A DNA stretch of 62,229 nt from a virus. Its lineage: Duplodnaviria; Caudoviricetes. Position 1 is the stretch's first letter. The number at the start of each line of letters is the position of its first letter. A program made the position numbers and the translations under genes. Shown here piece after piece: positions 1 through 62,229 of the stretch. The notes beneath the pieces are model-generated. The model worked only from the letters and a program-made list of their open reading frames with translations, did no database searches and was not told the origin of the DNA. The stretch spans positions 1-62,229 of the IMG/VR virus record IMGVR_UViG_3300020477_000002; one strand, 5' to 3'.

Positions 1-77
1 ATCAGGCACATACCCGCACATACAGGCGTGTGTGAATGCCGAACCAACCCCACGCACAGGAGTGAACGATGGGAAAT
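1..77. repeat. Exact 77-bp terminal direct repeat (copy 1); circular assembly overlap
   Basis: Identical to 62153-62229; 77 is a common assembler k-mer; the repeat ends inside the start of ORF 69..449. Confidence 0.95.
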
Positions 78-449
78 CTAGCAACAAAGCTACTCGAAGA
101 CGTAGCACAAATGCAATCACAGATTGCATCACTTGAAAAGGCCGTAGCGAAGCTAAGCAAACCAAGCAGAGCTAGAAGCGTAGCTTCCAGTGAAGCAGAG
201 CTTCAGCAGTTCCTGACGAAGCACGAGGAGGGCAAACCCTTCGCCCAGCTTCGGAAGGCTCTGGATGAGCACTACGCTGACTTCGCCAACTCCAGCTTAG
301 CAGAGCTAAGCCGGAAGCTGTTCAACAACGCAAAGATTAAAAATCTTTGCAAGGCTTGGGCAACACACCACAAAGAACCTTCGGTTCTGAAGTGGGCAAC
401 GGCTAAGACCAGAAACAACGCCAAGATTTTGGCTTGGTACAAAGGCTAA
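69..449 (+). CDS. Hypothetical basic helical protein, monocistronic, probably immediate-early
   Basis: 126-aa ORF, SD AGGAG at 58-62, own terminator downstream. Confidence 0.8.
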   Translation: MGNLATKLLEDVAQMQSQIASLEKAVAKLSKPSRARSVASSEAELQQFLTKHEEGKPFAQLRKALDEHYADFANSSLAELSRKLFNNAKIKNLCKAWATHHKEPSVLKWATAKTRNNAKILAWYKG

Positions 450-462
450 AGCCTTTACCCAG

Positions 463-1904: not shown

Positions 1905-2093
1905 ATGAGTGAATCACATATCAAGCCCTATGTATGGGATCAGATGGAACTAGTACGAATGCTTACCGATCTATACATGAAAAACAAGGACACTGAACAA
2001 GGGTTAATAAAGGGGATGCTAGGTGAACAAGCAAGCACGGCATTGAGAAAAGCTATCAACCTAGAATTAATCAAATTACTGGAGGAAATATGA
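1905..2093 (+). CDS. Hypothetical early protein (start moved to MSESH)
   Basis: GGAGG SD immediately upstream of ATG 1905. Confidence 0.7.
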   Translation: MSESHIKPYVWDQMELVRMLTDLYMKNKDTEQGLIKGMLGEQASTALRKAINLELIKLLEEI

Positions 2094-2428
2094 ACACTAA
2101 ATCAGTAGGCTCTGCCTTCTTCGATCTAAAAAATATCTGCGAAGAAGTTAGAGGCAGGCTCATCAGGAAGCTGATACGAGAAGCAGTCGGTGAAGCTATC
2201 CAACAGTCTGCTTACCTAGTTGAAAACGATGAGGAAGTGAATGAACTTATAGCTGAGTATTCTACTTCCGTACTACAGGTTACAAGAGTAACTGAAGATG
2301 TAACCCAGCAGATTCGTAATTACTGCATGAAAAATCTCAGTGATGACGAAGATATGAGGGAAGGAGTCAAGGAGGAACGCATGAAAGAGATGCGTGGTGA
2401 GACTGAACCAGTTGAACTAGAGTTTTAA
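2090..2428 (+). CDS. Hypothetical acidic early protein
   Basis: ATGA overlap, GGAGG SD. Confidence 0.75.
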   Translation: MNTKSVGSAFFDLKNICEEVRGRLIRKLIREAVGEAIQQSAYLVENDEEVNELIAEYSTSVLQVTRVTEDVTQQIRNYCMKNLSDDEDMREGVKEERMKEMRGETEPVELEF

Positions 2429-2438
2429 AGGAGAGCTT

Positions 2439-2669
2439 ATGGCAATAATCGGGTTAGAAACCAACAAGATATACAATCATGCTCGTCTAAACGAGATGAT
2501 GTATGTAATGAAAATACTTCACGAAGGTCTTGAAACTATATCAGTTGTTACTGATGAAGACCCAAGATCTATAGCAATAGAAACACTTAAATCAATGGAG
2601 GATGTATGCTCAAAGAGCGAATTAGCAACGACACTTCTAATACCAGAGACACTGAACGAGATGGACTAG
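2439..2669 (+). CDS. Hypothetical early protein
   Basis: AAGGAG SD. Confidence 0.7.
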   Translation: MAIIGLETNKIYNHARLNEMMYVMKILHEGLETISVVTDEDPRSIAIETLKSMEDVCSKSELATTLLIPETLNEMD

Positions 2670-2761
2670 CTTTCATAATCTTTGAGGAGATTGATGATGA
2701 GCAGGCTGTCAAGGAACTAGATCACCAAGTAGACAGGAGGTTACATGCCCACACTAAGTGA
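2606..2761 (+). CDS. Possible 51-aa protein (MLKERISND...), not in the ORF track
   Basis: GGAGG SD; fills the gap between neighbours but overlaps both. Confidence 0.35.
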   Translation: MLKERISNDTSNTRDTERDGLAFIIFEEIDDEQAVKELDHQVDRRLHAHTK

Positions 2762-2945
2762 GGAAGAAATCACTGCCATCATAGATCAGGTTATCATAGA
2801 TGTTGGCAACAAAGATTACACTGCTATCTACGAATTAGTTGAGAAGTTAGCTGAGTTAGATAGTACAAACGTAACCTTACTCCTCAGGGGATTCTTATCG
2901 GAAGGATTCTTTAAAGCAGAGGATAATGCTATGGAGGGAATATGA
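2745..2945 (+). CDS. Hypothetical acidic early protein
   Basis: AGGAGG SD. Confidence 0.75.
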   Translation: MPTLSEEEITAIIDQVIIDVGNKDYTAIYELVEKLAELDSTNVTLLLRGFLSEGFFKAEDNAMEGI

Positions 2946-3142
2946 GTCAAATAACTGATGATGAGTTCATTGATGGACTTGAGGCTTGGCTCAATAAAAC
3001 TGTAGGTAAAACATGGGACTTTCGCTTTGAAAGTTCTGATGCTGAGGCAGGGAATGTTGGGCTTAGTATCTCCATGCAAGTATGGGGATTAAAGTGTGAT
3101 GCTCTGTTAGATTATGATGGTGAAATACAAGGAGGAGCATGA
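2942..3142 (+). CDS. Hypothetical acidic early protein
   Basis: ATGA overlap, GGAGG SD. Confidence 0.75.
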   Translation: MSQITDDEFIDGLEAWLNKTVGKTWDFRFESSDAEAGNVGLSISMQVWGLKCDALLDYDGEIQGGA

Positions 3143-3348
3143 GTGAAATTAAAGAGCATAACCCTCGTGCATTTGATGAGCGTTACATTGAACGCATAGA
3201 GGATACAGTTGATATTGTAGTTGACAACATGGATGTGAAAGATCTTGTTGCATATACAGCAAGCTCATTGAAAGACTACTATGTAAACGTAGCAAGTGAG
3301 GAAGAGATTGAAGAATTGCTACGGGATAACGAACCACTACCATTCTAA
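3139..3348 (+). CDS. Hypothetical acidic early protein
   Basis: ATGA overlap, AGGAGG SD. Confidence 0.75.
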   Translation: MSEIKEHNPRAFDERYIERIEDTVDIVVDNMDVKDLVAYTASSLKDYYVNVASEEEIEELLRDNEPLPF

Positions 3349-3356
3349 GGAGGAAT

Positions 3357-3536
3357 ATGGAGCTAAGAAACTTAACAGAATTCCCAACAGATTACCTTGA
3401 TGCTTACTGTGATGCACAGCATGGGCATACTAATTGGGTAGTGCTAGGGAATAGAACTAAATTTACGATAGATGACCCGAAGATAGCATCTGTTGTAATC
3501 TTTTACAAGAACCCAGCAGAGGAGGAACATGAGTGA
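3357..3536 (+). CDS. 59-aa hypothetical protein (MELRNLTEF...), not in the ORF track
   Basis: AAGGAGG SD; fills the gap exactly. Confidence 0.7.
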   Translation: MELRNLTEFPTDYLDAYCDAQHGHTNWVVLGNRTKFTIDDPKIASVVIFYKNPAEEEHE

Positions 3537-3711
3537 TATAATGGACACAAGAATTGAATGTCCGCATTGCTTTTCACCTAATGTGGATCAGTTCGTAAAC
3601 AACGATGAACTATGGCACTGCCACACCTGCTCAGAGATGTGGGAAGTGGGAGAAAGCCTAGAGTTCTTAACCATTAAACATCCTGAACCTATGGAAGGGG
3701 TAAGCTTATGA
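3529..3711 (+). CDS. Small Zn-ribbon protein
   Basis: CPHC...CHTC. Confidence 0.7.
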   Translation: MSDIMDTRIECPHCFSPNVDQFVNNDELWHCHTCSEMWEVGESLEFLTIKHPEPMEGVSL

Positions 3712-3980
3712 GAGTAATAGTTACAATAGAAGAATCCAGTGGAGGATTTGCTGAGTGGAAAACATATAACATCAGAGTTCGTAAATGTCCACCGCATGAG
3801 GCTATGTTTGGATATGAAACTAAGAGCAATGAGTTTATATGTGAGTTAGAAGATTACTCTGATGAGGATATACGAAAGTATATGGAGAAGGAAGTAACCC
3901 TGACCCATACCGAAGCACAGCAAAGCTTTAACGAGATGGCTAATTACCTGCTGACAGGTAAAAGGGAGGGTGATGGGTGA
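3708..3980 (+). CDS. Hypothetical protein
   Basis: 90-aa ORF, ATGA overlap. Confidence 0.7.
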   Translation: MRVIVTIEESSGGFAEWKTYNIRVRKCPPHEAMFGYETKSNEFICELEDYSDEDIRKYMEKEVTLTHTEAQQSFNEMANYLLTGKREGDG

Positions 3981-4068
3981 CTTCTATTCAAAGCCTGTGA
4001 TTAACTATTACAGGAAAAGAAAACTCCTACCTAAAAAGCCTAAGTAATATACCAGTGTAAAATAAAAC

Positions 4069-4097
4069 TTGACAAGGTGTAACCACTGGTATATCCT
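4069..4097 (+). promoter_or_regulatory. Sigma70 promoter for the AAA/recombination/replication operon
   Basis: TTGACA-17 bp-TATCCT, AT-rich upstream, flanked by an 11-bp inverted repeat (4047-4057 / 4084-4094). Confidence 0.75.
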
Positions 4098-4141
4098 AGC
4101 GATAGTACCAGTCTACTCTAACTAGAAACAAGGGAGAATAG

Positions 4142-4222
4142 ATGGTTGAATTAATAATACCAGCAATTATAGCTGTGATCGTGGTGATCATAGTTATCCA
4201 AGACTTAAATGATAAATATTAA
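4142..4222 (+). CDS. 26-aa single-TM peptide (MVELIIPAIIAVIVVIIVIQDLNDKY), not in the ORF track
   Basis: GGGAG SD; first ORF after the promoter; hydrophobic core. Confidence 0.55.
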   Translation: MVELIIPAIIAVIVVIIVIQDLNDKY

Positions 4223-4234
4223 ACGGAGGAATAT

Positions 4235-5407
4235 ATGAAAGCATTAAACTTTAACGAAACACAGACAGCCGTAGCTCTCTGTATGAAAGCTGATGTAGTA
4301 CCATTCATCTTTGGACATCAGGGTATGGGTAAATCAGCATCCATTAAACAACTGGTTGACCATATCAGTAGTGGCAGAAAGAAACCATTTCACCTGATAG
4401 ATCTAAGACTCTCACAGATTGAAGGCATAGATCTAAGGGGGCTGATGAAAATAGAAGATGGGATTACTAAGTATTACCCACCATCCTACCTAGCACCTAT
4501 GCTTGAGAAGGATTGGGAAGGTACTATCTTCATGGATGAGTACATGCTTGGTGATACTGATGCTCGTAAGGGATCTATGCAGTTAACAACTGACCGAAGG
4601 ATCGGGGAGTTTGTGTTCTCACCTAAGGTGTATCCTGTTATGGCATCGAACAGAACTCAGGATGAAACCATGCAGGGTAAACTGTCAGGCCCAGAGGCTA
4701 ACAGGTTTGCCATATGGGAGATGGATTATGATGCAGATTATTTTAATCAGGCTGCCGTAGCTGGATTTGAATCTGACTATAGTCATCTGCCTAAGTGGGA
4801 TGACCTGCCTGATCCACTGTCAAGAGAGGATAAGCACCCTGTTGATGGAAGGATAAGGTTCTTTATAGCCAATCAGGACACAACAAATAACCCTGTGTTT
4901 AAGAACTTTGATCGAGCATCTTTCAAGGCTGGATCATTTGCCCATGCTACTCCACGTTCATGGCATGCAGTGAGTAGAATCCTGCAAGTTTGTGATCGGG
5001 ATGCAGAGGTATGGGAGAAACTACCTAGCTTCAAGTCTATCCGCAGAGCATTAGTATGTGGATTGGTTGGAGATGGAGTAGGGACTAGCTTTACTGGCAT
5101 GATTGATCAGCTAGATAAGTTAGTTGATATCGAAGCAGTTAAACGTGATGGGTCTAAGGCTAAACTGCCTGACCAGAATGACTCCATGTGTGTAGGAATC
5201 TGCTGGATCTCAGTAGGTGTACTCACAAATGAGAGACACTTCACCCCAGAGACTGCTGATAATATTATCAAGTACATCAAACGACTTGGTGATATATGTA
5301 AGGAGTTACCTCAGACAGCTAAGGCTATGATTGAGGGTACAAATTGCCCATCAATTCAGAGTGCCATTGAGAACAGCAAGGAATATCACAAGCTTGCTGC
5401 TGCATAG
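4235..5407 (+). CDS. MoxR-like AAA+ ATPase
   Basis: Walker A GHQGMGKS, IDLRLSQ, Walker B IFMDE, ASNR sensor, NRF Arg finger, TPRSW. Confidence 0.9.
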   Translation: MKALNFNETQTAVALCMKADVVPFIFGHQGMGKSASIKQLVDHISSGRKKPFHLIDLRLSQIEGIDLRGLMKIEDGITKYYPPSYLAPMLEKDWEGTIFMDEYMLGDTDARKGSMQLTTDRRIGEFVFSPKVYPVMASNRTQDETMQGKLSGPEANRFAIWEMDYDADYFNQAAVAGFESDYSHLPKWDDLPDPLSREDKHPVDGRIRFFIANQDTTNNPVFKNFDRASFKAGSFAHATPRSWHAVSRILQVCDRDAEVWEKLPSFKSIRRALVCGLVGDGVGTSFTGMIDQLDKLVDIEAVKRDGSKAKLPDQNDSMCVGICWISVGVLTNERHFTPETADNIIKYIKRLGDICKELPQTAKAMIEGTNCPSIQSAIENSKEYHKLAAA

Positions 5408-12832: not shown

Positions 12833-13461
12833 ATAGTGATAGGAAAAATTTGCCTAACAGGAGGCGTGGCTTCACCCAGAAGGCTCGCATAGGGGGACAC
12901 AAGATATACTTACATACAGGTGAGTATGGAGATGGTTCCCTTGGAGAGATCTTCTTGGATATGAATAAGGAAGGAGCTACATTGGGAGGCTTAATGAATT
13001 GTTTTGCAATAGCGGTTTCACTAGGCTTGCAGCATGGTGTGCCGCTAAGAAAATATGTTGATGCATTTACTTTCACAAAGTTTGAGCCGTCAGGTATGGT
13101 TCAGGGTAGTGATTGTATTAAGATGTCTACGTCACCACTGGATTATATATTCAGGGAGTTGGCAGTAAGGTACGATGACAGACAGGATCTGGCTCACGTA
13201 CCACCTGCCCAGATCGTAGACAAAAAGACTGAGAAGTATATACCAGAGATAGATGGATTACCCCTGCCAATAGAGGGAGCATCTGTCCCTGAGAAGATTC
13301 CAGTTGAGGTAACACCAAAGACTACACCTTCCAAAGCAGAGGAGGCAAAGGTCAAAGGGTATGAGGGTGAGGCTTGCACCTCATGCAGTCAGTTCACTTT
13401 AGTTAGGAATGGATCTTGCTTAAAGTGTGTATCATGTGGAGAAACTAGTGGGTGTTCTTAA
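12829..13461 (+). CDS. Stand-alone C-terminal region of class II (B12) ribonucleotide reductase NrdJ (TSCPD-like plus Zn ribbon)
   Basis: [59 protein letters not shown]...[14 protein letters not shown]. Confidence 0.88.
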
Positions 13462-13534
13462 GCTAATACTATTATTGCTTATTGTATATTCATACATTTC
13501 ATTCTATCCAGAATGGAATAGTTTTATTCTACAA

Positions 13535-13612
13535 TTTTATAAATAATTTATTTTATTTATTTATTTATTTATTTATTATAAAATAATATTTATATTATTA
13601 TAAAAATAATCC
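13535..13612. repeat. Near-pure AT tract with (TTTA)n
   Basis: About 75 bp essentially without G or C, including several tandem TTTA units. Confidence 0.85.
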
Positions 13613-13632
13613 TACCTATATGAGGTTGTTCT

Positions 13633-13848
13633 ATGGATGGAACATATAAACTCAGCAGTTTTCCTAAAAATCTTAGGAAATTAATGTTTGAAAAAGGCAT
13701 GAGTTCTGCACATCTAGCAGAGGAGTTAGATGTGGTACGGATGAGTGTATATAATTGGAGGGCAGGCCGTGCCGACCCTTCTTTACGGAGACTCTTCGAG
13801 ATCTCCTCGGTGCTTGACACCAACATAACTAATCTATTAAAGGAGTAA
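13633..13848 (+). CDS. Cro/CI-type (XRE) HTH regulator
   Basis: GMSSAHLAEELDVVRMSVYNWRAGRADPS. Confidence 0.88.
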   Translation: MDGTYKLSSFPKNLRKLMFEKGMSSAHLAEELDVVRMSVYNWRAGRADPSLRRLFEISSVLDTNITNLLKE

Positions 13849-13852
13849 TAAA

Positions 13853-14200
13853 ATGCCCAGTTATAATAAAGTAATTATCGTAGGAAACATGGGAGCCGAT
13901 CCCAGTATTAAGGAAAGTTCAACTTATGTAAGCGTAGCAACTAACGAGTCATGGAAGGATAAGGAAACTGACGAGTGGCAGGAGAGAGTATCTTGGCACA
14001 AGGTTATGGCTTATGGCTACACTGCAGAGAAACTTAACAAGCTGTCGAAAGGCACAAACATAATGGTTGAGGGTAGCCTTGACTATTTCACACCAAAGGA
14101 AGAAGGTGAAAATCCTGCGGCCTTTATTAAGGCACAGAAGATTACCAACATGTCCCAAAAGTCTAAAGATGATGGCGGGAAGGACGATATTCCATATTAA
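13853..14200 (+). CDS. ssb: Single-stranded DNA-binding protein
   Basis: NKVIIVGNMGADP, SVATNESWKD, WHKV, VEGSL, acidic DDIPY tail. Confidence 0.95.
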   Translation: MPSYNKVIIVGNMGADPSIKESSTYVSVATNESWKDKETDEWQERVSWHKVMAYGYTAEKLNKLSKGTNIMVEGSLDYFTPKEEGENPAAFIKAQKITNMSQKSKDDGGKDDIPY

Positions 14201-14774: not shown

Positions 14775-17700
14775 CTAGCGAAGAGCAGGTGATTCTGCTA
14801 TTCTGTCTGTGATTTGGTTCCTTAACAGGTATAATTGATCCATCCTCTCTCTTTTTTGTTCAGCCCCCATATATTTATCAAAGCGAATGATCCTTATACG
14901 TTTATTTATTTCATTAAGCATGCGTTGCTTCTTCTTAATGAAGTCCTTCCACTTTAATAAATCCTTTTTCTCCTCATATATTTCCTTATACCTATCCCAA
15001 TCTTCCAATTTCTTTGACAGGTTCAAATCATTATGTGCTTGTTCTACATCTTTAAGCCTTTCATAAAATGCAGTACCTGCTTTAGTGTTACGGATAGGCG
15101 ATGCCTGAAACATTTTTCTTAATACAGGATGATCCATAAACTTCTGAGCTGGTCGTTCAGGAAAATCCCTAGCCTTGGATACAATCATATTAGATAGCCC
15201 TATACCTAGCTCTCCTACCCAGCCAAAGTATCCATTAACTAAATGCTCTAACTGCATAGGCGAAATTTCTACACCTGCCCAATCGAATGCTTCCGACATA
15301 GTAATCATTGTCTCGGAAGTATACAGGTCACGCTTCTCCTTAGCAGACATATTCTTAAAGCGGTACGGCTCTATCGGTCTATCAAAGAAGAAGTTCTTAT
15401 TCATTCCGACTTCTATTAAAGGTTTAACTACCTGTGGTATGGGTGTCATATCGAACTCCCTAAGAAGAACTGATTTAACAGCACTTACAAATAGCTCCCC
15501 ATTAACAGGGTCTTTCTTCCTCGCCATGTCAAGTCCACGCCATGCTAGGTTAGCCACGATAGCAAACTCATGAGGCTTAGGCATTCTAAAAGCGGTATCA
15601 GTGCCGGGTATATTAATCCACCAGTACATATCCTTATCCCAATCCTGCCTTCTTTGCCACTCTTCGTTATCCTCATACATAAAATACTCAGCTATTGAAG
15701 CTGCAGTTATAGCACTAGACACAACCACAACAGGGATAGGATTATTTATTAATGCACGACCTGTCTTGTACTTACCTTGAAGCATAGCATTTGCAAACGG
15801 GGTTAGTGACGTTACTAAATTAACCCACTTAGCACCACCATGCAGGGTGAAGTCCATTAAATCTCTAGCTTCAAACGCAGCCTTTAGCTGCGAATCACCT
15901 TTATCTAAATGATGTCGGAAGATTGCGGCTCTGTTAGCATTCTCAAGCTTGTCACCAAATCTCTGGTATCTATCCCAGACACCTCTTGCCATAGCGGTAT
16001 ACTTCCTCACCGCATTCATATATCCATCATGTGCTTCAGGATTTGCACCTATAAAACCTGACCTCATTTCTTTAGTGAGAAGCTTCTTCGAGAAGTTAGG
16101 ATCATCAGATCTTATATTACCAAACTGTATATAAGCACCTGATACCAGCATGTCTGCCTCACTCCTACCTAATTCTTTATAACCACCAACAGCATTCTTA
16201 AATACATTATATCCAACTTCACTTTGTGCTGCGGCATTCATTGTATCTCGAAGTACGTTCCTTACTTTGAATACTGGACTGGCTGTAGTAATTCTAGTGA
16301 ATAAGTTCTTTGCATATAAAGCCCAACCCATACCTGCAAAATCATTACTTACATTCATTGACCCAAGTGAATCGAACAGCATGGGATCTGATATTTCATA
16401 ATGAAAATCCTTCCCATCTTTAATAACTCTCAAGGAAGATTCTGAAGGATGCCTAACCCTTCTAGCTAAGAACTCTCCTGATATTGGATCTTTTATTTTC
16501 GATGCTTGTTCTAATGTTAGCACTGCAGAATCGTTCTTAAGCGATGCCGATATGATGTGCATGGCATTTCTTACAAGGTTATCTAGTGGATTATCCAGTG
16601 CTCTATGGGAACCCTTTAGCTGTTTAATACCTGTCTGCCCTGCTAGTGACTTATAATTACGTGTGCCTTTGGGCACATCTTTACCAATCCCCTCTTCAAA
16701 ATGTCTGAAGAATGGTAGATACCAATCTGTATTCCAGTTGGATGCTGACTCAGCATTAAACAGGCCCATATCAATACCAAAATCAACAATCCCTTTGTTC
16801 CACTCAGCTAATTCCTTAGCCATTTTTGCATAGAGATGTTTCCTAGATACTGTTACACCTGTTGTTGCATCCCTAAGCTCACCTTTATCAAATCCATTTA
16901 CCGGATCAATAGCGGCATCAATATGTTTTCTTTGTATGCCTAAGGTTTCTTCACCCATTTGCTTCTCAAGAAGGTCTGCTCTTTTGTATGCAACCCAAGC
17001 AACAAACCTGTCAATCTCAGATTTATAGTCATCCTTGTTGCCCATCTTACCACCCAATGGACGGAGAATTTCAAACAACCCCCTACCTTTTGGATCGAAC
17101 TTGACTTCATTTATAGTTACACCATCTACCTTTTCCCTCTTTACAGTAATACCTCCATGCCTTAGCTTAACAGCCATCACCCCATCTTCTCTGTTCGAGA
17201 GCCTAGCCTTCATGTACTCTACATCACCAACCTTTGATTTAACAACTCTATAGGGATCTGTAACCTTATGTATTATCTGAGCACCTAATCTACCCCACCA
17301 CCCTGACATAGTTTTTTCGTTAGGATTATAGGAGGGATACATTGCATCCATAGCTTCCAGTTGGTCAACACCTACGTCACCCATATTCCTAAACTTTTCG
17401 TGAGGCTCAAGGATTTTCAAGTGCCTTTCACCAAGTTTAGTTTGTCTCATTTCCCTCACGCTTTCTATATGAGAGATGTCTTCAAGTGGCATATCAGATA
17501 CGCCAAAAAAATCTAGCTCTGATCCTAGTTTTTCTTCACCGGGTTTTGCTGGCCTATTTAAAGCTGCTTGTTCATCTCCTTCTGCATAAATAACTTGCTT
17601 AGGATAATTTCTCCATGCTCTATCTTTTCTTTTCCAAGCTTTTGCCATATCAAGAAGTCCAAGCTTAACCTCTGCAGGAGTAAGTGCAGTTTGTTTCCAG

Positions 17701-20700
17701 CCTAATGACTCCATGAATCTACCAAATACCTTCCTAAACCAAAAAGCAATCTTGTCTGTGAATGTAGGATCTTCAGCAAACTGCTTACTGGATTCTTCAG
17801 TAAAGTATTCACGCCCCTTATCTACATCCTCCCTACCTAGATACTCTGATATCCTAGCTACAATTTCTAATGAAGCCTCAGTCTCTGCATGTAATTCAAG
17901 ATCCTCCCCAAACTTTTTATTATACTCAGAAAATTTAAAGTTACCGCTAGTTCCTTCATTATCAACCTTCATAAAATAAACTTCTGCAATAGCCCTAACC
18001 TCTTCATAAGTTTCTTGTGCCTTAGCTTTGGAGGTAGCTGAAGTTGTATTTACATTGCCAAACTTCCTAAGAAATTCCTGATGTGGTTCATATGGTATTT
18101 CTTCAAACATTTCCTCAAACCATCTATCTCCCCTTGCATCTTGATTACTTTTAAGCCAGTCTCCATACATAGGCTTACTTAGTTCTTCTGTGATGAAAGC
18201 CTTATATGGATGGGACTTCATCCTTTCATTTTTAAGAGCATCATAACCATGCTGCATAAAACTTTTAATACTGTTTTGATAGTGAGGCCCAAGCATTGAT
18301 GCACCATAGCCCGGAGTATTCTCATAATATTCAGCAAACTCTTCAGTCATATTGTTCTTGACAAGCTGAACAAGCTCATCCTTTGCAGGCTTAGGAAGAA
18401 GCTCAACAACTCCATGACCTACTGATTCATGCCATAATGTTTTAGCTAGTATGATTTCACTAGTCATCATCCTCTGGTTAAGGTAGACACGCCTTGTTTG
18501 TGAATCAAACCATCCAGCTATTGGCAGAGTACCCATCATTCCATCTGATAATACACTTATTCTTGGAGCACCCGGATATCTATTGGTAAATTTTTCAATC
18601 ATTTCTTTTATTCTAGGCATAGGTAGGGGTGCAGGCATAGCCTTATCAACTATGTCACCGGGTTCGGCTTGTCTATTAGGATCAGCTATCCTTAATTCTC
18701 CTTCTACTCTACGCCATCCTTGACCTATATTTCTTTGAACTTCTTTTACAGCCTCCCACCACTCGTCACTAAATAGAGTGTGATCTGCTGTAGCTTCTTT
18801 AATTTCATTGGAGATAATGATTCTATCAGATAGCAGGTGAGCCTGTAATTGGAATGGACTTGTTTGTTCAGCTTCTATTAACCTCCAAACTGGACTATCT
18901 TTTAGTTGCTGGTATCTATTCTTTACGGCCTCCCATTCTGCATCTAATTCAGCTTCAGTCATCATATCCGACTCACCAACTTGAGAAGGATATTTCCAAG
19001 ATCCTGCTTCTTCAGATAATATTTCTTCTACTGTAGCATCGAATGCCTCTATTTCTTCTGGAGTTAAGTCTGCCCTTATAGAAGAATCAACAGGGGTTGG
19101 AAGTATAATGGGGATTGCTCGCCCATCACTTATTTGATCCTTTAATTTACTTTCATACTCTGCAATTTCCTCAGGTGTATATTTTTTCTCCTTATCTTTA
19201 GCAGCCTCAACTTCATTATAGTAATCAGTTGATGTGCCTACATCTGTGTCAGTAACAAAGTCATCATATACTGTGCCGTGATCTTCTGCATTCTTCTGGA
19301 CTAAGGCAGTTAATGTTTCAATCTGTGCCTCACCATGTGCTGAACGATTGATATTCTCCTTAGTCATCTGCTGAACCAGCTCATCTTCATCCTGCTGTAG
19401 TCGTTCCCGATCAGGATTAAGACTCTTAACTGTTTCTACATAAGTACTTGCAGTTGCCTCATCTTTGAATTCAATATTAACTACTGTAGGCTCTTCCCCC
19501 TTACCACGCTCATACATGTATGATAGTTCAACTAAGTTACCTGTATTAAATGCCCACACTATAGGCGTTCCTGCAATATCTTCCTGCATAGTAATAGCAT
19601 CAACTTCATCAGCCAGCTTATTAAGATTAACGTCTACATCTCTGTCAACTCTAGCAAGTATATCAGATGGCAGTGATGGAGAGTCTTTGGTGGTTTCTAT
19701 CAGGTCAGTCCTGTCGAGTTTCCTACTAATAAACTTGTTGGCCTTCCTGTCTTTACCCAACATAACACCATGTTGATGCAAGGTGCGTTTAATAAAGTCT
19801 GGAACAACCTGTGGCTCTGGATCAAGGGCGGCTAATAAGGAGCTGCCACTCTCATATCTAGCAACAGAATCAGGCTCAGCAACATCGATGTCCATATTAA
19901 GTCTGTAGATTTTCCAGTCATCACCCTTAGCCAGACCCTTACTGACAATGAATGAATCATCACCACCTAAACTATCAATGAATGTTTCTATTTCGTTTTG
20001 CTTGGCATCGGAAAGGTATGGTGCAAAGATACGTTCAACTTCTGAAGTAACTATTTGCCATACATCAGGGGTCTTTGGTTCTTTGTAGGGTACTTTTTTG
20101 GTTGCTTTGACAGCACCTCTGGTGAGCTTTGATACTAGGTCTTCTGGATTGGTAGGTTCAGCTTCCTTTTTTGTTTCTTGTTTTTCCTCCCTTACTTCGG
20201 ACTTTTTTTTTAAAGTTTTCTTGGGCTTCCTTGTAGCCTTTAGTTTCTCAGAAGCTTCCTTCTCTTTGGCAGAGTACTTATCCACCTTAGTACTAACAGT
20301 GCTACCACCCTTCTTGGCTAATGCAAAATTAACTTTTTCCCTTTGCTTTTGTGTCAACAGTGGGAAGTATCTATCCTTTAGGGACTGGCTATTATCAGGT
20401 GTTACTTCACCTTCCAACCAAGTTACTAATGCATTGCGTATAAGTTCCTTTAAATCAGTTGGAGCTTTTTTAACACCACCTAGATCCTTCTTTATTTGTT
20501 CAGAGAAAAATTCTGTAGTTTTACCTGTCGCATCCCAACGGGATACATCAGTATACTTAGGATCATCTTCTATTTTCGCATACCAATCTTCTCTGAATTT
20601 TTCAGGTAGGGAGTTCTTTACGGCATCCGCATCTAACACCCTTCCAGTTTTCTTAGCTTGGTTTACTCGCTCCTGTAGTATCTCTAATGCCTTGCCAATA

Positions 20701-23700
20701 GCACCAGTACCTTGCTCTAAGGCATCCCCTACTGTTGCCATCTCACCTTTTGGGGGTCTGACGGGGGCTTTTGTTTCTTTCTTAGGAGCAACCTTTGCCC
20801 TAATCTTTTCTAAAACATCCATTGGCTTATCAGTTTTTTCAACCTTAACACCAACACCTTTAGCTACTCTACTTACTACATCTTCGAGTTCACTTAATGG
20901 TACATCGCCTACGTCAACTGTCTGAATTAATGCCCTAGCTTCTTCGGCTGCATCTATCCTGTCCTTTATCTTTTCTTTGCCCTTCTTACCCCTTCTAGCG
21001 GCAAGCTTATCCTTCATATCCTGTTGCTTGGTACGCTTCTTTGCGGCATCATCTGCCAATCCTTTATCTGTTACCTGCTCAGGAGATTTAAGGTCTGCTG
21101 ACTTCTTCCTATTGTCAACCATACCCTCTGTCAAGGCATCTGTATGTACCTGCTCCTCAACATCTGCCTGAGTTACTGGTCTGGTGCGAGGTGTTCTAGG
21201 TTTCTCAGTACCTTCAGCTACTCTCAGTGGCGTGTCAGCTTCCCTACCTTCAGTAATGAATCCGTTCCTGTATTTACCACCCTTTTCTTTAACACTATAC
21301 GTATCAGCTAATCCTGACAGCAGGTGTTGGAGCATAGCTTCTGCTTCCCTAGTATGCTTACCATTCTTGCTTATAGCATGTCTTCTTACAGTACTATCTG
21401 GTCTATAATTACGTCTTTCTTCAGGTGTTAATTGATTGTAACGATGCGTTTCTATTAGTTCTTTTTTAACTGTTTGTCCTAGCTTACCTGCCCCCCTCTT
21501 TTCAGTAGAAAAGAAAATATTACCATCACGATCAACCCCATCGAACCTCCACTTCTGTACTTTCTTCGGGAAACTATTGGGATCATCATTACGGAAGCCC
21601 CTATTCTTAGAATAATGAATAACAGTTTGCCCTATGAGTGGGGTAATGTCTTCTTCTGGAACCTTTTTAGGACTCTTTATAGTACTTCCATCACGATTAT
21701 AAAGCCTTACTCCTTTAGTAAATTTAGGGGAAGCAGCAACTTCAGCAGCAAGTTCTTCTTCTAGCTCCTGCCTTTCTCTACTTATTTGTTCTTTTGTCTG
21801 GTTTAATTCTCCCAATCCTTCTTCTATAGAACTCCTTAATTCCGCTTGCTCCTTTGCTTCAGCATCACCCAGAACTTCAATATCAGAAGCAGCTCGTGCT
21901 CTTGAAAATGGAAGTGCATCACCGGGAACTTCTATTTCAAGCTCCAGTGCTAAGTCTTCTGCTATCCTATCCCTTAAGTCTGCTGGGATTTGATATTCAT
22001 TTTTCTTTTTACCTTTCTTTGTTGTATATTCAGTTGGTTTGATACCTTCTTCCTCAGCCCTTTCCTTAATCTTGTTATATAACTTACCTCTTTGATAGTT
22101 CCAATCCCAACCTCCTTCTTGGAATCCCTCCCTAAGTGCCCATGATTTAACAAGTTCAACTATCTCAGTAGCAGATTCACCTACAGTTAGAGTTTCTGGT
22201 ATAGGAGTTTCTTCATAAATTGTTTCTACCGCTTCTTTTTTAACAGTTGGTTTTTTCTTTGGTTCGGTTCCCTTCTCCGCAACCACACTGGCTTCCCTTT
22301 CTGTACCAACTTGTTCAACTGCTTCCCCTTCTTTTGGTGGTAAAACTGGTGGTAAATCTCCAGCCTTGGTACTTACTGGTGTAGCATCAGGTTCAGGTGT
22401 AACTACAGGTTCACCTACTTCCTCAGCAGGAGCCTTCTCAGCCCTGACTGCATCAGCCCTAGGTATAGTACCAGCCTTCTCCATGTTAGCGATGACAGCA
22501 TTAACACCTTTGTTATCAAGATTTACATTACCTTGAGCTGTCTGCAGGTAGGCTATATCACGGGGGCTTCTTTGTTCTTCTGGTGTCTGAAGTATATTAT
22601 CTACAGTCTGCCTTAGAACTGCATCCTCATTAAGCTCAACTGCTGGGTCGGCTGCCTCCTGTATTGGAGTAGCATCTGGAATAAAATGAGTTCCGGGCTT
22701 GAATGAATCTACTCTACGCTTCCTTTCTGATGTACGTTTAGGTTCTGTCTTCTCACCAAGAAGATCAGCACCTCTTCTCATGTCAGCTATTTCTTCATCG
22801 ATGACTCGTACAATACGATCATCCTGATCTACTGCCTTCTGCCTTAATCTATCAAGTTCTACGAGTGCAGTCTCCGTATCAGGAATATCTATTGCAGATC
22901 TAACCTGATTTAATATAACTCCCTTAGGAACAAAGTCCTCATCACCCGGTTTAGCAGTTCCTGATGGTCGAGCAATAGGATTACCATTCTTATCTAAACT
23001 AAAAGATCCCTTCTCCCACGCTTTATAGCCTCTATATCCACTAACACTACCAAATGGGCCACCCATAACACCACCCATCAGTGCCTCGTAACCTACCTGC
23101 TTAGGATCAATTCCATATATAGTACCTGCTAATAATGGGTATGGAATCTGCTCACCAACATCTCCTAATGCCAACATCTTAGCTTCCATTGCAGTATACT
23201 GAGAACCTGCTGATTGAAGTGCCTCTTCAAGTGCCTCTATACCTGATGACTTAGCACCTGTTCTCATTATAGTTCCCCATTTACCTGATGCGGTCTTAAT
23301 CATTTTAGCAAAACGACCTGCACCAGCAGGTGTTCTGTTAAGTGGATTAAATAAATTACCTAGAAATACCTTCCATGCACTATCATCAGCACGTTCAGAT
23401 AAAATCTTTACAGCCTCTAATCGTATTGCCTCTTCATCTTCAGTGGTAAGCTTCTTCTTCATTGCAGTCTCAAGCTTCTCCCTTACCATTGGATCTGTAA
23501 TAATATCTACATAATTAAATCCAACTTCTGCCAATGCTTCTACTGTATTCCTTGCCATAAAAGCTGTCAGCCAAGCGGCAGCTCCAGTTATTCCTATGGC
23601 AGCAGCAGTCTTTGCTCCAACAACTGCACCTGCTACACCACCTACCATAACTGCCGCCATTGTTGGGACAGATACGGATAGATCAAAGAGGAACTGAGTA

Positions 23701-24191
23701 ACAGGATTCATATCCTTAGATTGGTATGCGTATATAAGACTGTTCTCCCACCTTGATTCATCCATTTGCTCTAGGTTGTCAAGCATACCTTCAGGATCAT
23801 CGAGTCCTTTTGCTATTGCAAACTCACTTACATCAACCATCTGACCGCCCAGATTTTTAACCATCTGGCCCCATCTGCTAACAGTTCCACCGAAGCCTTT
23901 CTCACGGCTGAAATCTCCGGGGTTATCTGCTTGCCCTAAGCCATATGCATCAAACAAGTATTCCAAATCATCGTCAGATATGTCAGGCATGGTTGATTTG
24001 ATCTCCCTTCTTAAGGAATTTCTTTTCAACTTCCATGCTCCGTATGGATTGTCTGGCATATTATAAAGGCTATCTAATTCAGACCTGTACTTTTGTGCCT
24101 GAGGAGGTATTGCTAAAGGTTGAGGAGCTATAGGATCAACCTGATATCTCCTCATTTTTGTATCTTCAAATCCTTTATATTGTTCTGCCAT
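14775..24191 (-). CDS. Giant internal virion / ejection protein (polyvalent-type) with zincin-like motif and LPD38-like C-terminus
   Basis: 3138 aa; LWHESVGH; W-x2-RQDWDKDMYWWINIPG...RMPKPHEF...P-x2-KPLIEV...NKNFF...PI; last gene of the virion operon. Confidence 0.75.
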   Translation of the reverse strand: MAEQYKGFEDTKMRRYQVDPIAPQPLAIPPQAQKYRSELDSLYNMPDNPYGAWKLKRNSLRREIKSTMPDISDDDLEYLFDAYGLGQADNPGDFSREKGFGGTVSRWGQMVKNLGGQMVDVSEFAIAKGLDDPEGMLDNLEQMDESRWENSLIYAYQSKDMNPVTQFLFDLSVSVPTMAAVMVGGVAGAVVGAKTAAAIGITGAAAWLTAFMARNTVEALAEVGFNYVDIITDPMVREKLETAMKKKLTTEDEEAIRLEAVKILSERADDSAWKVFLGNLFNPLNRTPAGAGRFAKMIKTASGKWGTIMRTGAKSSGIEALEEALQSAGSQYTAMEAKMLALGDVGEQIPYPLLAGTIYGIDPKQVGYEALMGGVMGGPFGSVSGYRGYKAWEKGSFSLDKNGNPIARPSGTAKPGDEDFVPKGVILNQVRSAIDIPDTETALVELDRLRQKAVDQDDRIVRVIDEEIADMRRGADLLGEKTEPKRTSERKRRVDSFKPGTHFIPDATPIQEAADPAVELNEDAVLRQTVDNILQTPEEQRSPRDIAYLQTAQGNVNLDNKGVNAVIANMEKAGTIPRADAVRAEKAPAEEVGEPVVTPEPDATPVSTKAGDLPPVLPPKEGEAVEQVGTEREASVVAEKGTEPKKKPTVKKEAVETIYEETPIPETLTVGESATEIVELVKSWALREGFQEGGWDWNYQRGKLYNKIKERAEEEGIKPTEYTTKKGKKKNEYQIPADLRDRIAEDLALELEIEVPGDALPFSRARAASDIEVLGDAEAKEQAELRSSIEEGLGELNQTKEQISRERQELEEELAAEVAASPKFTKGVRLYNRDGSTIKSPKKVPEEDITPLIGQTVIHYSKNRGFRNDDPNSFPKKVQKWRFDGVDRDGNIFFSTEKRGAGKLGQTVKKELIETHRYNQLTPEERRNYRPDSTVRRHAISKNGKHTREAEAMLQHLLSGLADTYSVKEKGGKYRNGFITEGREADTPLRVAEGTEKPRTPRTRPVTQADVEEQVHTDALTEGMVDNRKKSADLKSPEQVTDKGLADDAAKKRTKQQDMKDKLAARRGKKGKEKIKDRIDAAEEARALIQTVDVGDVPLSELEDVVSRVAKGVGVKVEKTDKPMDVLEKIRAKVAPKKETKAPVRPPKGEMATVGDALEQGTGAIGKALEILQERVNQAKKTGRVLDADAVKNSLPEKFREDWYAKIEDDPKYTDVSRWDATGKTTEFFSEQIKKDLGGVKKAPTDLKELIRNALVTWLEGEVTPDNSQSLKDRYFPLLTQKQREKVNFALAKKGGSTVSTKVDKYSAKEKEASEKLKATRKPKKTLKKKSEVREEKQETKKEAEPTNPEDLVSKLTRGAVKATKKVPYKEPKTPDVWQIVTSEVERIFAPYLSDAKQNEIETFIDSLGGDDSFIVSKGLAKGDDWKIYRLNMDIDVAEPDSVARYESGSSLLAALDPEPQVVPDFIKRTLHQHGVMLGKDRKANKFISRKLDRTDLIETTKDSPSLPSDILARVDRDVDVNLNKLADEVDAITMQEDIAGTPIVWAFNTGNLVELSYMYERGKGEEPTVVNIEFKDEATASTYVETVKSLNPDRERLQQDEDELVQQMTKENINRSAHGEAQIETLTALVQKNAEDHGTVYDDFVTDTDVGTSTDYYNEVEAAKDKEKKYTPEEIAEYESKLKDQISDGRAIPIILPTPVDSSIRADLTPEEIEAFDATVEEILSEEAGSWKYPSQVGESDMMTEAELDAEWEAVKNRYQQLKDSPVWRLIEAEQTSPFQLQAHLLSDRIIISNEIKEATADHTLFSDEWWEAVKEVQRNIGQGWRRVEGELRIADPNRQAEPGDIVDKAMPAPLPMPRIKEMIEKFTNRYPGAPRISVLSDGMMGTLPIAGWFDSQTRRVYLNQRMMTSEIILAKTLWHESVGHGVVELLPKPAKDELVQLVKNNMTEEFAEYYENTPGYGASMLGPHYQNSIKSFMQHGYDALKNERMKSHPYKAFITEELSKPMYGDWLKSNQDARGDRWFEEMFEEIPYEPHQEFLRKFGNVNTTSATSKAKAQETYEEVRAIAEVYFMKVDNEGTSGNFKFSEYNKKFGEDLELHAETEASLEIVARISEYLGREDVDKGREYFTEESSKQFAEDPTFTDKIAFWFRKVFGRFMESLGWKQTALTPAEVKLGLLDMAKAWKRKDRAWRNYPKQVIYAEGDEQAALNRPAKPGEEKLGSELDFFGVSDMPLEDISHIESVREMRQTKLGERHLKILEPHEKFRNMGDVGVDQLEAMDAMYPSYNPNEKTMSGWWGRLGAQIIHKVTDPYRVVKSKVGDVEYMKARLSNREDGVMAVKLRHGGITVKREKVDGVTINEVKFDPKGRGLFEILRPLGGKMGNKDDYKSEIDRFVAWVAYKRADLLEKQMGEETLGIQRKHIDAAIDPVNGFDKGELRDATTGVTVSRKHLYAKMAKELAEWNKGIVDFGIDMGLFNAESASNWNTDWYLPFFRHFEEGIGKDVPKGTRNYKSLAGQTGIKQLKGSHRALDNPLDNLVRNAMHIISASLKNDSAVLTLEQASKIKDPISGEFLARRVRHPSESSLRVIKDGKDFHYEISDPMLFDSLGSMNVSNDFAGMGWALYAKNLFTRITTASPVFKVRNVLRDTMNAAAQSEVGYNVFKNAVGGYKELGRSEADMLVSGAYIQFGNIRSDDPNFSKKLLTKEMRSGFIGANPEAHDGYMNAVRKYTAMARGVWDRYQRFGDKLENANRAAIFRHHLDKGDSQLKAAFEARDLMDFTLHGGAKWVNLVTSLTPFANAMLQGKYKTGRALINNPIPVVVVSSAITAASIAEYFMYEDNEEWQRRQDWDKDMYWWINIPGTDTAFRMPKPHEFAIVANLAWRGLDMARKKDPVNGELFVSAVKSVLLREFDMTPIPQVVKPLIEVGMNKNFFFDRPIEPYRFKNMSAKEKRDLYTSETMITMSEAFDWAGVEISPMQLEHLVNGYFGWVGELGIGLSNMIVSKARDFPERPAQKFMDHPVLRKMFQASPIRNTKAGTAFYERLKDVEQAHNDLNLSKKLEDWDRYKEIYEEKKDLLKWKDFIKKKQRMLNEINKRIRIIRFDKYMGAEQKRERMDQLYLLRNQITDRIAESPALR

Positions 24192-29365: not shown

Positions 29366-29922
29366 TAGCTAGGTACTGCTGGAGTTTCAACATCACTTAC
29401 ACTGATGTCTGTTTCAAATGATCCTACGTATCCTCGTGGATTAGAATTAGTATTCTCAACCTGCTTCCACTGGAATATATAACCCCTACTTCCAGACGGC
29501 ATATAGAACTTCTCAGTCTTCCAAACAGTTGAGCTGAAATAACGACTAGAGCCTAGCTTATTGCCATCGAAATACATATCTATAGTAACATCACCCTTGT
29601 ATGTTATTTGTGCTTCTGACAGCTCTTTAACGACTCTGTGAGATGATACTGGAGCAGCTACTATCTCACAGTTAACCATGTCACATCCATCCTCTATGCT
29701 TATCTGTACTAATGAGCCTGCCTGTGATGGATTAGGGAATATCCTAAGAGGCAGAAGCTTCCCTTTAACTGTAAGATCACTGCCTATAACTGTCTCTGTT
29801 CCTGCATGCTCACCATCTACAGCAAAATTAAACTTAAGATTTCCTCCACTTACTCTAGGTATTACACCAACCATTGCCTGATGAAATACTACTGGTGCAG
29901 GATACTGCTGAAACTCTGCCAT
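29365..29922 (-). CDS. Beta-rich tail protein resembling the C-terminal domain of the 2101-aa protein
   Basis: ITYKGDVTIDMYFDG...KTEKFYMPS vs VFYKGDIDFRVMLDG...KEERIYLPA. Confidence 0.65.
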   Translation of the reverse strand: MAEFQQYPAPVVFHQAMVGVIPRVSGGNLKFNFAVDGEHAGTETVIGSDLTVKGKLLPLRIFPNPSQAGSLVQISIEDGCDMVNCEIVAAPVSSHRVVKELSEAQITYKGDVTIDMYFDGNKLGSSRYFSSTVWKTEKFYMPSGSRGYIFQWKQVENTNSNPRGYVGSFETDISVSDVETPAVPS

Positions 29923-61859: not shown

Positions 61860-61888
61860 AGTATAAAGCAAAATGTACACCATGTCAA
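61860..61888 (-). promoter_or_regulatory. Near-consensus sigma70 promoter, leftward
   Basis: TTGACA-17 bp-TATACT. Confidence 0.85.
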
Positions 61889-62109
61889 CTATTATTTTCA
61901 TGAGGGGATAAGCAACTCATATTATTTTGGGTTTTCGGAAGGGGGGTGTAAGAGAGTAGGAGTCCCATATATATATGTGCACGGGCGGAGGGTCGCCTGT
62001 GGGGGGGACTTTTTGTGCGAACCATTTATTTGATCTGATCTTTTTTCTGGAGGTCATCCGAATCTGGGAAATGCTTCGGGGCAATCGAGCCAATTTTTTG
62101 GGAAAGTTG

Positions 62110-62118
62110 TGCTAGACT
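62110..62118 (+). promoter_or_regulatory. Putative extended -10 sigma70 promoter for the first gene
   Basis: TG-c-TAGACT about 100 nt upstream (across the join) of ORF 69..449; no clear -35. Confidence 0.5.
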
Positions 62119-62152
62119 GAAAGCAGATCGACTTGCCACTTTTGGCAGGAAG

Positions 62153-62229
62153 ATCAGGCACATACCCGCACATACAGGCGTGTGTGAATGCCGAACCAAC
62201 CCCACGCACAGGAGTGAACGATGGGAAAT
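62153..62229. repeat. Exact 77-bp terminal direct repeat (copy 2)
   Basis: Identical to 1-77. Confidence 0.95.

Follow-up and report, generated by a model that had tools for sequence, protein, structure and literature searches.

A dense array of short perfect hairpins overlies a small, fast-evolving gene of an uncultured marine phage

A one-gene cassette and its hairpins

The window analysed here is the whole of the complete virus record IMGVR_UViG_3300020477_000002 (Duplodnaviria; Caudoviricetes), 62,229 base pairs (bp) from an uncultured marine phage that marine metagenome runs from 11 studies contain wholly or partly. Our subject is ORF1, an open reading frame (ORF) of 126 codons at 69–449, over whose codons lies a second constraint: 6–11 short perfect stem-loops, with stems of 5–9 bp and loops of 3 nucleotides (nt), an array far beyond what the protein sequence and codon usage allow and present in every cassette allele that we found. 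Its stems are kept through compensated changes and spared by recent substitutions, and only the closing pair and the ends of the loop are constrained in sequence. The features of the cassette, including the hairpins of the window allele, are as follows.

62108–62118, plus strand: extended −10 promoter-like element TGTGCTAGACT (TGnTAGAMT), its promoter role inferred from sequence only
62132–62149, plus strand: 5′-leader hairpin CTTGCCA-CTTT-TGGCAGG, with a tetraloop and one G·T (G·U) pair; other alleles have small changes
56–71, plus strand: Shine–Dalgarno motif AGGAG and the ATG start of ORF1, kept in all alleles
69–449, plus strand: ORF1, 126 amino acids, carrying the hairpin array; a small all-helical protein of a small phage family
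111–129, plus strand: hairpin ATGCAATC-ACA-GATTGCAT, 8-bp stem, 3-nt loop; L003 and L004 have the same stem with an AGA loop
145–155, plus strand: hairpin TAGC-GAA-GCTA, including the heptamer GCGAAGC; L009 has here the 8-bp TCTGTAGC-AAA-GCTACAGA
175–187, plus strand: hairpin GAAGC-GTA-GCTTC; L003 and L004 have, in register, CAGAGAC-GTA-GTCTCTG, with two compensated pair changes
183–196, plus strand: hairpin GCTTC-CAGT-GAAGC, 5-bp stem, 4-nt loop, overlapping both neighbouring hairpins
191–205, plus strand: hairpin TGAAGC-AGA-GCTTCA, with a direct repeat, AAGCAGAGCT, in common with 164–173 and 298–307
295–311, plus strand: hairpin GCTTAGC-AGA-GCTAAGC; there is a hairpin at this protein motif in six of six homologous alleles
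330–350, plus strand: hairpin GCAAAGATT-AAA-AATCTTTGC, 9-bp stem, 3-nt loop; L003 and L009 have (C)AAGAGC-GTA-GCTCTT(G) 8–9 nt further on
374–388, plus strand: hairpin AGAACC-TTC-GGTTCT, found by exact scan, with a GAA loop on the minus strand; near this site L003 has CCAGTTC-GTA-GAACTGG and L009 CTTCG-GTGA-CGAAG
420–433, plus strand: hairpin GCCAA-GATT-TTGGC, 5-bp stem, 4-nt loop; L003 has AAGAATC-GACA-GATTCTT nearby
441–456, plus strand: hairpin AAAGGC-TAAA-GCCTTT, spanning the stop codon and identical in L003 and L004
465–502, plus strand: intrinsic terminator closing the unit, with a long stem, a TACG (UACG) tetraloop and several G·T (G·U) pairs, then T8

A preliminary description of this DNA had begun the gene at 79, ten bases too late, and had called it the first gene, which is correct only in the numbering of the record: the promoter region lies at the opposite end of the record, of which bases 1–77 repeat 62153–62229. 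The length of this direct repeat fits an assembly overlap, so the start of the numbering is probably arbitrary, and the repeat is more readily taken as an overlap left by the assembler, on a circular or terminally redundant assembly, than as a physical terminal repeat. The position near a genome end from which the same description had argued is therefore not established, the cassette being internal in other contigs.

We compared seven alleles, the window and six others from marine contigs (L003, L004, L009, L014, L015 and L018), counting the identical pairs L003/L005, L015/L016 and L018/L021 once. For scanning DNA a narrow family profile worked, the one built on every member being too diverse; L006–L008, false matches to a bacterial protein sharing only the word LIEDVAQM, were removed before all counts. 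Protein identity to window ORF1 is 42% for L003 (whose ORF is identical to that of L005) and L004, 49% for L009, and about 33–36% in the family alignment for L014 and L015, which are 31–36% identical to the lead protein of the profile; L018 has an ORF with a different C-terminal half. In all six contigs the −10-like element is kept, as TGcTAGACT, TGaTAGAAT or TGcTAGAAT, at an equal distance to the ORF, and across all alleles the DNA of promoter element, leader, ribosome site and terminator is near-identical, with the ORF interior strongly diverged. Many more contigs in public runs have the terminator with other sequence upstream. That the flanks are kept, that the ORF has diverged and that the terminator is found behind other sequence together indicate that the locus behaves as a conserved expression unit whose cargo changes fast. 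Purifying selection acts on the protein, with a nonsynonymous rate (dN) of 0.078 and a synonymous rate (dS) of 0.273 between L014 and L015 (a ratio of about 0.3), and ORF1 is a real gene, fast-evolving and immediate-early.

Hairpin density against shuffled sequence

An exact scan recovered all nine palindromes of the preliminary description at their coordinates and added a tenth, at 183–196. Counting as a hairpin any perfect stem of at least 5 pairs with a loop of 3–4 nt, ORF1 holds eight, compared with means of 0.79 after codon permutation, 1.21 after synonymous shuffling and 0.92 after dinucleotide shuffling, and none of 5,000 shuffles of each kind reached eight. Summed stem pairs amount to 51, against shuffle means of 4.2–6.7 and a maximum of 37. 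The array thus stands far above the synonymous-shuffled expectation of about one hairpin, the comparison that the preliminary description had proposed. Hairpin density over the whole window is 2.94 per kilobase, and for stems of at least 5 pairs closed by C-G around a 3-nt loop that reads R-N-A on either strand (R, purine; N, any base), ORF1 accounts for five of the seven in 62 kilobases. In other genes the preliminary description had seen no such density; the only other 400-nt stretch as dense, at 13,200–13,900, is AT-rich and intergenic.

We rejected that stretch as an instance of the same phenomenon, as it is a low-complexity AT-rich run (TTTATTTA...). Within it, the run at 13480–13610 (TTTATTTATTTA...) sits between an ORF of 210 amino acids and a small helix-turn-helix-like ORF, and may serve as a promoter or an origin.

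Hairpins are inherited as structures

The other alleles share this richness. L003 contains 10 hairpins with a 3-nt loop, nine of them with 7–8-bp stems, where synonymous shuffles average 1.35 and 0.29, and none of 3,000 shuffles reach these numbers. Hairpins of the C-(R-N-A)-G type exceed synonymous shuffles in all six homologous alleles (P ≤ 0.001 of 2,000); plain counts are weaker in L014, the most distant allele (P = 0.07–0.10), and L018, with its different ORF, reaches P = 0.007 for summed pairs and 0.058 for the count. Every allele found is hairpin-rich, with up to 10 hairpins, so that the homologues do carry the palindromes.

A codon alignment places hairpins at corresponding positions with different letters. 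The GAAGC-GTA-GCTTC of the window is GAGAC-GTA-GTCTC in L003, through two compensated pairs that turn Ser-Val-Ala into Asp-Val-Val, and its GCTTAGC-AGA-GCTAAGC is GCTAGC-GGA-GCTAGC in L009, again through two compensated pairs. We read such changes from the codon alignment because register and loop differ at the most conserved site, making a single consensus structure impossible there: across the six homologous alleles, the hairpin at the 295–311 motif varies in stem and loop, shifts its register by 1–2 nt and has a loop of 3 or 4 nt. Other hairpins are allele-specific, that is, they turn over between alleles. Given this turnover, and the sliding of hairpins by a few bases, it is their number and kind that are kept, not their exact place.

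Recent substitutions tell the same story from the other side. L003 and L004 differ at 25 of 465 nt, with no difference in nine stems of 7–8 bp, three in loops and 20 elsewhere (Fisher p = 0.004); the remaining two changed both bases of a single G-C pair, in a 5-bp stem, to T·G. Among the differences listed for contigs of other runs, none of 15 within the ORF (run X13) and none of seven (X8) falls in a stem of at least 5 bp, and the loop centre at base 120, C in the window, is G in the X12 and X13 contigs and A in the X8 contig. One loose end among these contigs has the L003 stem CAGAGAC/GTCTCTG with the loop GAA, not GTA. Between L015 and L014, a perfect 6-bp palindrome in the former (AAGAGC-TTC-GCTCTT) is imperfect in the latter, with four changes in 12 nt that lie in both arms, three of them synonymous; a cluster of eight changes between L003 and L004, at ORF positions 125–134, has no obvious inverted source. 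The suggestion of a second code at the level of nucleic acid, made in the preliminary description, is borne out in that homologues keep hairpins by compensated changes and close alleles differ in loops and between hairpins, not in stems. We consider it very probable that the array is under selection.

Two further observations concern the alleles as mosaics. In a contig of run X8, window positions 173–236 of the ORF (64 nt, two hairpins) are replaced by 76 other letters with the remainder nearly identical, which looks like a mosaic exchange inside the gene. L018 (reverse strand, 1464–1784) and L021 (2445–2765) have the same promoter, leader and terminator around an ORF of 106 amino acids, which has C-GAA-G hairpins too, and the locus seems to swap its cargo and retain its expression signals.

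A C(R-N-A)G signature

The hairpins share a core. The closing pair is 5′-C..G-3′ in 17 of 20 distinct stems from four alleles, against seven of 71 background hairpins of the window (p = 2.6e-10), and 22 of 23 loops read R-N-A on one strand, against 20 of 71 (p = 5e-9); loops of 3 nt dominate in the array, and loop length is flat in the background. Across the seven alleles, 29 distinct hairpins carry more than 1 bit of information only at the closing C, the closing G and loop positions 1 and 3, giving the signature 5′-C(R-N-A)G-3′ with flanks and stem unconstrained outside the closing pair. The C..G pair closes 26 of the 29. The first loop base is G in 19 hairpins and A in the other 10, the third is A in 27, and the centre is A in 14, T in seven, G in six and C in two (a purine in 20); the R-N-A loop lies on the sense strand in 22, on the opposite strand in five and on neither in two. 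The heptamer GC[AG]NAGC occurs five times in ORF1, where 0.17 are expected, and 28 times in the window. The C-GNA-G mini-hairpin signature that the preliminary description had named is therefore present, with A in place of G at the start of some loops. C-G-closed G-N-A triloops are specially stabilised in DNA nearest-neighbour tables; RNA favours UNCG and GNRA tetraloops, a difference that speaks for DNA here.

Mini-hairpins of sequence GCGNAGC are described as very stable, nuclease-resistant and poorly bound by single-stranded DNA-binding protein (SSB), and they occur at regions where replication and transcription start, among them the G4 origin, ssiA and the N4 promoters (PMC13037366, in excerpt). 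ORF1 shares the core GC-(G/A)NA-GC with the GCGNAGC/GCGNNAGC mini-hairpins of Hirao and colleagues, known from the complementary-strand origins of G4, St-1 and alpha3 and from ssiA. It differs in its longer stems (5–9 bp), in that a third of its loops begin with A, and in the tandem placement of its hairpins within coding sequence, in a phage with double-stranded DNA.

Action as DNA or as RNA

If the array is selected, its sequence points, on balance, to action at the level of DNA; action at the level of RNA is the lesser but still substantial likelihood. With wobble allowed and stems of at least 6 pairs, ORF1 has five perfect stems and two containing G·T, and the rest of the window 53 and 257; perfect stems are enriched about 15-fold, and wobble-containing stems of the sense strand number two against about 1.6 expected. 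A G·U test for RNA-level selection gave no signal on either strand. The stems of the array end abruptly, without lengthening by G·T pairs, and are unlike the certain RNA hairpins of the cassette, the leader and the terminator, which have tetraloops and G·U pairs. A search of Rfam 15 gave no match near the gathering score in L001–L004 (best E = 0.085, to an unrelated microRNA model).

Folding energies are low whichever molecule is assumed. Predicted RNA folding lies far below shuffles (z = −7.7 for 40–510 of the window and −7.6 for L003), and both strands fold better than synonymous shuffles with RNA and with DNA parameters (DNA-parameter z of −4.6 to −6.3), and comparing the folding energy of the strands does not discriminate.

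The hairpins might instead act in the messenger RNA (mRNA), compacting the first strong transcript and thereby protecting it from host endonucleases or Rho, or tuning its translation; their DNA-like appearance, with perfect stems and C-GNA-G turns, would then merely reflect the origin of the palindromes by template switching, a process that can create and keep RNA stems (PMC8794818, in excerpt). The cassette is a self-contained transcript with a promoter, a structured leader and a strong terminator, the hairpins are restricted to this transcribed unit, and the RNA folding z of about −7.6 is in keeping with such a role. So are the preponderance of R-N-A loops on the sense strand (22 of 29), though a coding-strand purine bias may account for part of that asymmetry, the slightly stronger sense-strand z with RNA parameters, and the outcome of the single paired double change, from G-C to U·G. 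Against action in mRNA stand the missing excess of wobble-containing stems and of G·U extensions, the dominance of 3-nt loops in place of the tetraloops and G·U pairs of the undoubted RNA hairpins, and the lack of an Rfam match. We regard it as unlikely, though worth keeping in view.

Origin of the palindromes

Template switching makes and repairs stems in RNA, as argued for ribosomal RNA with selection at the RNA level retaining them (PMC8794818, in excerpt); it is a source of mutation in coding genes, where it can invert the spacer (PMC8604942, in excerpt); and in yeast high transcription promotes quasi-palindrome mutation (PMC3820800, in excerpt). The ORF1 hairpins resemble such quasi-palindrome mutations in their perfect arms, multi-base changes and loop inversions, and in that a hairpin could be created in one step. 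They differ in that about ten of them, with one type of loop, lie in one gene and are spared by recent substitutions. Template switching is a mutational source and not a function: the footprint of template switching suggested in the preliminary description is a plausible origin for the palindromes and leaves the conservation of their stems unexplained.

One could nonetheless suppose that the palindromes are functionless, a neutral footprint of frequent template switching in a highly transcribed and weakly constrained gene, with stable C-GNA-G turns nucleating fold-back synthesis. The stems are indeed perfect, sharply bounded and mostly 7 bp long, they slide and turn over between alleles, and divergence is far greater inside the ORF than in its flanks; the loops TTC, TAC and TCT are the reverse complements of the commonest loops, GAA, GTA and AGA, as spacer inversion would give (PMC8604942, in excerpt), and the yeast observation fits a heavily transcribed gene (PMC3820800, in excerpt). 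But recent substitutions avoid stems, with none of 25 in the 7–8-bp stems of L003 and L004 and none of 22 among the differences listed for X13 and X8, and if arms were corrected without bias in a neutral process, pairs would still change roughly as fast as neutral sites. L015 and L014 differ in both arms of the L015 palindrome, which therefore did not come from a single copying event; that three of the four changes are synonymous also counts against neutrality. Purifying selection on the protein shows that the gene is not weakly constrained, and the pattern appears in no other gene of the 62-kilobase genome. A neutral origin and persistence of the whole array is, in our estimation, improbable.

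Comparison with N4 promoters and other recognised hairpins

The closest structural parallel is with phage N4, whose early promoters place inverted repeats on either side of a GC-rich heptamer and have a 5–7-bp stem, a 3-nt loop and a sheared G:A pair (PMC4496689, in excerpt); the P2 hairpin reads GAAGC-GGA-GCTTC, the stem letters of which are those of the window hairpin at 175–187 (PMC13492108, in excerpt). Like these promoters, the array combines perfect stems of 5–7 bp, 3-nt loops, C-G closing pairs, loops of G-N-A type and a GC-rich heptamer, and it is placed in the earliest-expressed part of the phage genome; N4-type geometry, with stems of 5–9 bp, is found in the six window hairpins that have 3-nt loops and in 29 distinct hairpins across the seven alleles.

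The differences are as marked. N4 has three intergenic promoters, where ORF1 has 6–11 hairpins inside one coding gene that is served by a host-type promoter; N4 promoters are conserved from −17 to +1 with a purine (G) at the loop centre, where the array is conserved only at the loop and closing pair and often has T or C at the centre; and N4 has its stable hairpin on the template strand upstream, where the R-N-A loops of ORF1 lie on the sense strand in 22 of 29. Since the strand with the GNA loop is the sense strand, N4-type initiation would run antisense, judging from the geometry of the P2 oligonucleotide (PMC13492108, in excerpt).

An N4 mechanism would also call for an injected polymerase, in N4 a diverged T7-like enzyme. 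The virion module encodes two giant proteins.

14775–24191 and 29922–36227, minus strand: two giant virion-module proteins, with no PDB chain matched by phmmer

Scans of the large proteins with Pfam and PHROGs found no RNA polymerase, although a very diverged enzyme could escape them; phmmer against all PDB chains gave no hits for the giants of 3,138 and 2,101 amino acids; no DxDGD motif was found; and a six-frame search with PF00940 gave no matches, a weak result because its controls were silent too. The N4 mechanism that the preliminary description had brought up thus lacks support on three counts, as no virion RNA polymerase was detected, nothing is conserved in sequence outside the loop-proximal positions and the GNA loops are on the sense strand. 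The array resembles N4 promoter hairpins and mini-hairpin DNA, yet does not belong to the N4 promoter family, because conserved flanks, a virion polymerase and the strand logic were each looked for and none was found.

The same evidence bears on a broader proposal, that the array is recognised by some protein able to read hairpin DNA, be it an N4-like injected RNA polymerase, a primase of G4/ssi type or the ORF1 protein itself. Its attractions are a geometry equal to that of N4 early promoters (PMC4496689, in excerpt), the stem letters shared with P2 (PMC13492108, in excerpt), the five GC[AG]NAGC heptamers against 0.17 expected, the mini-hairpins at the G4 origin and ssiA (PMC13037366, in excerpt), and the presence of two giant virion proteins without an assigned activity in a phage whose capsid is distantly like those of phages including one annotated N4-gp56. 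Yet no RNA polymerase emerged from the Pfam, PHROGs, phmmer/PDB and DxDGD scans, nothing is conserved outside five central positions, no more than 20 of 29 loops have a purine at the centre, and the sense-strand GNA loops imply antisense initiation in a gene that has its own sigma-70-like promoter. We think recognition of this kind very improbable.

Another precedent for palindromes in early DNA is the injection-stop region in the first-step-transfer DNA of phage T5, a palindrome- and repeat-rich region that lies in the first DNA to enter the cell and for which a role in ejection control has been proposed (10.1101/866236, in excerpt). The likeness lies in palindrome-rich early DNA; the T5 region is untranslated and long, made up of repeats and DnaA boxes and set in a mapped terminal repeat (10.1101/866236, in excerpt), unlike the ORF1 hairpins, which are unique sequences inside a gene.

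Chance, or a by-product of a helical protein rich in Ala, Ser, Glu, Lys and Leu whose common codons (AGC/GCT, GAA/TTC, AAG/CTT) are mutually reverse-complementary, can be set aside as next to impossible: A-K-L, A-E-L and S-V-A can be written GC-GAA-GC, GC-AGA-GC and AGC-GTA-GCT, and the internal direct repeats of ORF1 share AGCAGAGCT, but synonymous shuffles, which preserve the protein and its codon usage, and codon permutation, which preserves the codon set, reject this reading, giving about one hairpin where 8–10 are observed, with none of 2,000–5,000 reaching that number, and loops start in all three codon phases.

Interpretation

Taken together, these results lead us to a selected hairpin array over a real gene, more likely acting as DNA than as RNA and probably seeded by template switching, a composite reading to which we give slightly less than an even chance of being right in all its parts; any specific downstream function that we can name for the array is improbable when taken singly. 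The palindromes would have arisen where stable C-GNA-G turns nucleated fold-back template switching, with selection holding them thereafter. The hairpins would act as DNA when the sense strand is unpaired, through unwinding by transcription or an R-loop, in which it is the non-template strand of a heavily transcribed first cassette, or as the lagging-strand template beside a candidate origin. Once unpaired, the sense strand would snap into compact mini-hairpins that bind SSB poorly and resist nucleases, and the folded strand would hold the region open, shield it, or provide places where priming can start. The setting of the array may be such an origin or R-loop.

Several observations pull the other way. 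With RNA parameters the z of the sense strand is slightly the larger (−5.1, −4.3 and −6.5, against −3.5, −3.9 and −3.7, from 20 shuffles each), and the sole double change between the close alleles L003 and L004 ends in T·G, which pairs in RNA. Ten of the 29 loops begin with A (AGA, AAA, ACA), outside the strict G-N-A motif. The alleles are partly closely related, so that counts of distinct hairpins are not phylogenetically independent. Finally, the perfect stems could be young products of template switching retained by selection at the level of RNA.

A more pointed version of action as DNA holds that the gene is dual-coded, its array of SSB- and nuclease-resistant mini-hairpins, kept by compensatory evolution, being a cis-acting element of DNA structure; we regard this as conceivable and rather doubtful. 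Here the array would hold open a transcription-made R-loop for replication or priming, or shield the first DNA to be exposed. If true, the coding DNA of a double-stranded DNA phage would contain a structural signal of a new class, with the promoter hairpin of N4 reused without that polymerase.

Stable DNA triloop hairpins are known as single signals, in N4 promoters, in G4 and in ssiA priming sites; ORF1 has about ten over one coding gene, kept across alleles whose proteins are only 30–50% identical, and full-text literature searches found no published report of such an array. It is a clean example, in nature, of bases contested by two codes, in which complementarity leads to Ser/Ala, Asp/Val and Arg/Ser swaps, so that the hairpin code dictates pairs of amino acids. 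Should the hairpins act as DNA, they would represent a means, not described before, by which a phage marks or protects the region that it expresses first; should they act as RNA, they would be an unusually explicit armour of mRNA. Either way, the locus is a test bed for how template switching and selection jointly build and keep hairpins.

The ORF1 protein

ORF1 has no significant Pfam or PHROG family (best E = 0.0036 and 0.014) and no usable match in the ESM Atlas, and DNA and tblastn searches of the GenBank phage collection found nothing. Its family comprises five clusters by word search and 12 proteins (E ≤ 1e-3) when a profile is run against 1.84 billion representatives; the members have a C-terminal helical domain in common. 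An AlphaFold2 model (predicted local distance difference test score, pLDDT, 73.8) is all-helical, with seven helices, and Foldseek found no PDB match to it at E ≤ 0.001.

Two direct repeats lie within the gene, the one noted above at 191–205, in three copies (164–173, 193–202 and 298–307), and AACAACGCMAAGATT, in two (324–338 and 414–428); they encode the recurring peptide pieces SSxAEL and NNAKI. Their arrangement suggests an internal duplication that also copied hairpin cores. A distant match to the family profile, protein P0014 of 319 amino acids, consists of four tandem units of about 60 amino acids that resemble the C-terminal motif of the family (..EVAKAWAxEHNIIN..QW...NRP.NLP...YKCTKEEFFG), and the protein has a weak Pfam WRKY match; this may point to a DNA-binding role for the family domain.

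Genome layout and noncoding elements

Early and replication genes run rightward from 69 to about 14,500, and a leftward block from about 61,750 down to 14,775 encodes terminase, a portal-like protein, the major capsid protein and the two giants. The capsid protein is distantly related, at 23–29% identity, to capsid proteins of Stenotrophomonas, Xanthomonas, Pseudoalteromonas and Pseudomonas phages, one of which is annotated as N4-gp56 family. The larger giant, of 3,138 amino acids, combines an LPD38 'polyvalent protein' domain with a metalloprotease-like HExxH motif, WHESVGH; the other, of 2,101, matches an 'internal virion protein' PHROG and contains HELYH. In the RNA runs listed, only 0.04–0.05 of the sampled words of the stretch are present.

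A near-consensus sigma-70 promoter at 61860–61888 on the minus strand (TTGACA, a 17-nt spacer, TATACT) points left to the structural block, so that this 'late' block also seems to have a strong host-type promoter. Between the divergent promoters, a noncoding block at 61937–62009 that contains the G-runs GGGGGG and GGGGGGG, a stretch of (TA)n and a small GC hairpin hardly varies across all alleles (about 2720–2795 in L003 and 4283–4352 in L009) and could be a packaging, terminus or origin element. At 62049–62069 the window has GGAGGTCATCCGAATCTGGGA and L004 (about 195–215) has GGAGGTGGGTCGAATCCCAGA, with apparent paired changes that keep a small stem; its TCGAAT loop recalls the T-arm of transfer RNA, and Rfam gave no match.

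Cumulative GC skew reaches its minimum in the intergenic region of the cassette, a weak hint of an origin that is confounded with gene orientation. Downstream of ORF2, some 600 bp beyond the cassette, an AT-rich stretch at 1018–1090 has (TA)n runs and a perfect 17-nt tandem repeat, two copies of ATATATAAAGAAAAGAA at 1052–1085; it is iteron-like, and hints weakly at a candidate origin or regulatory region.

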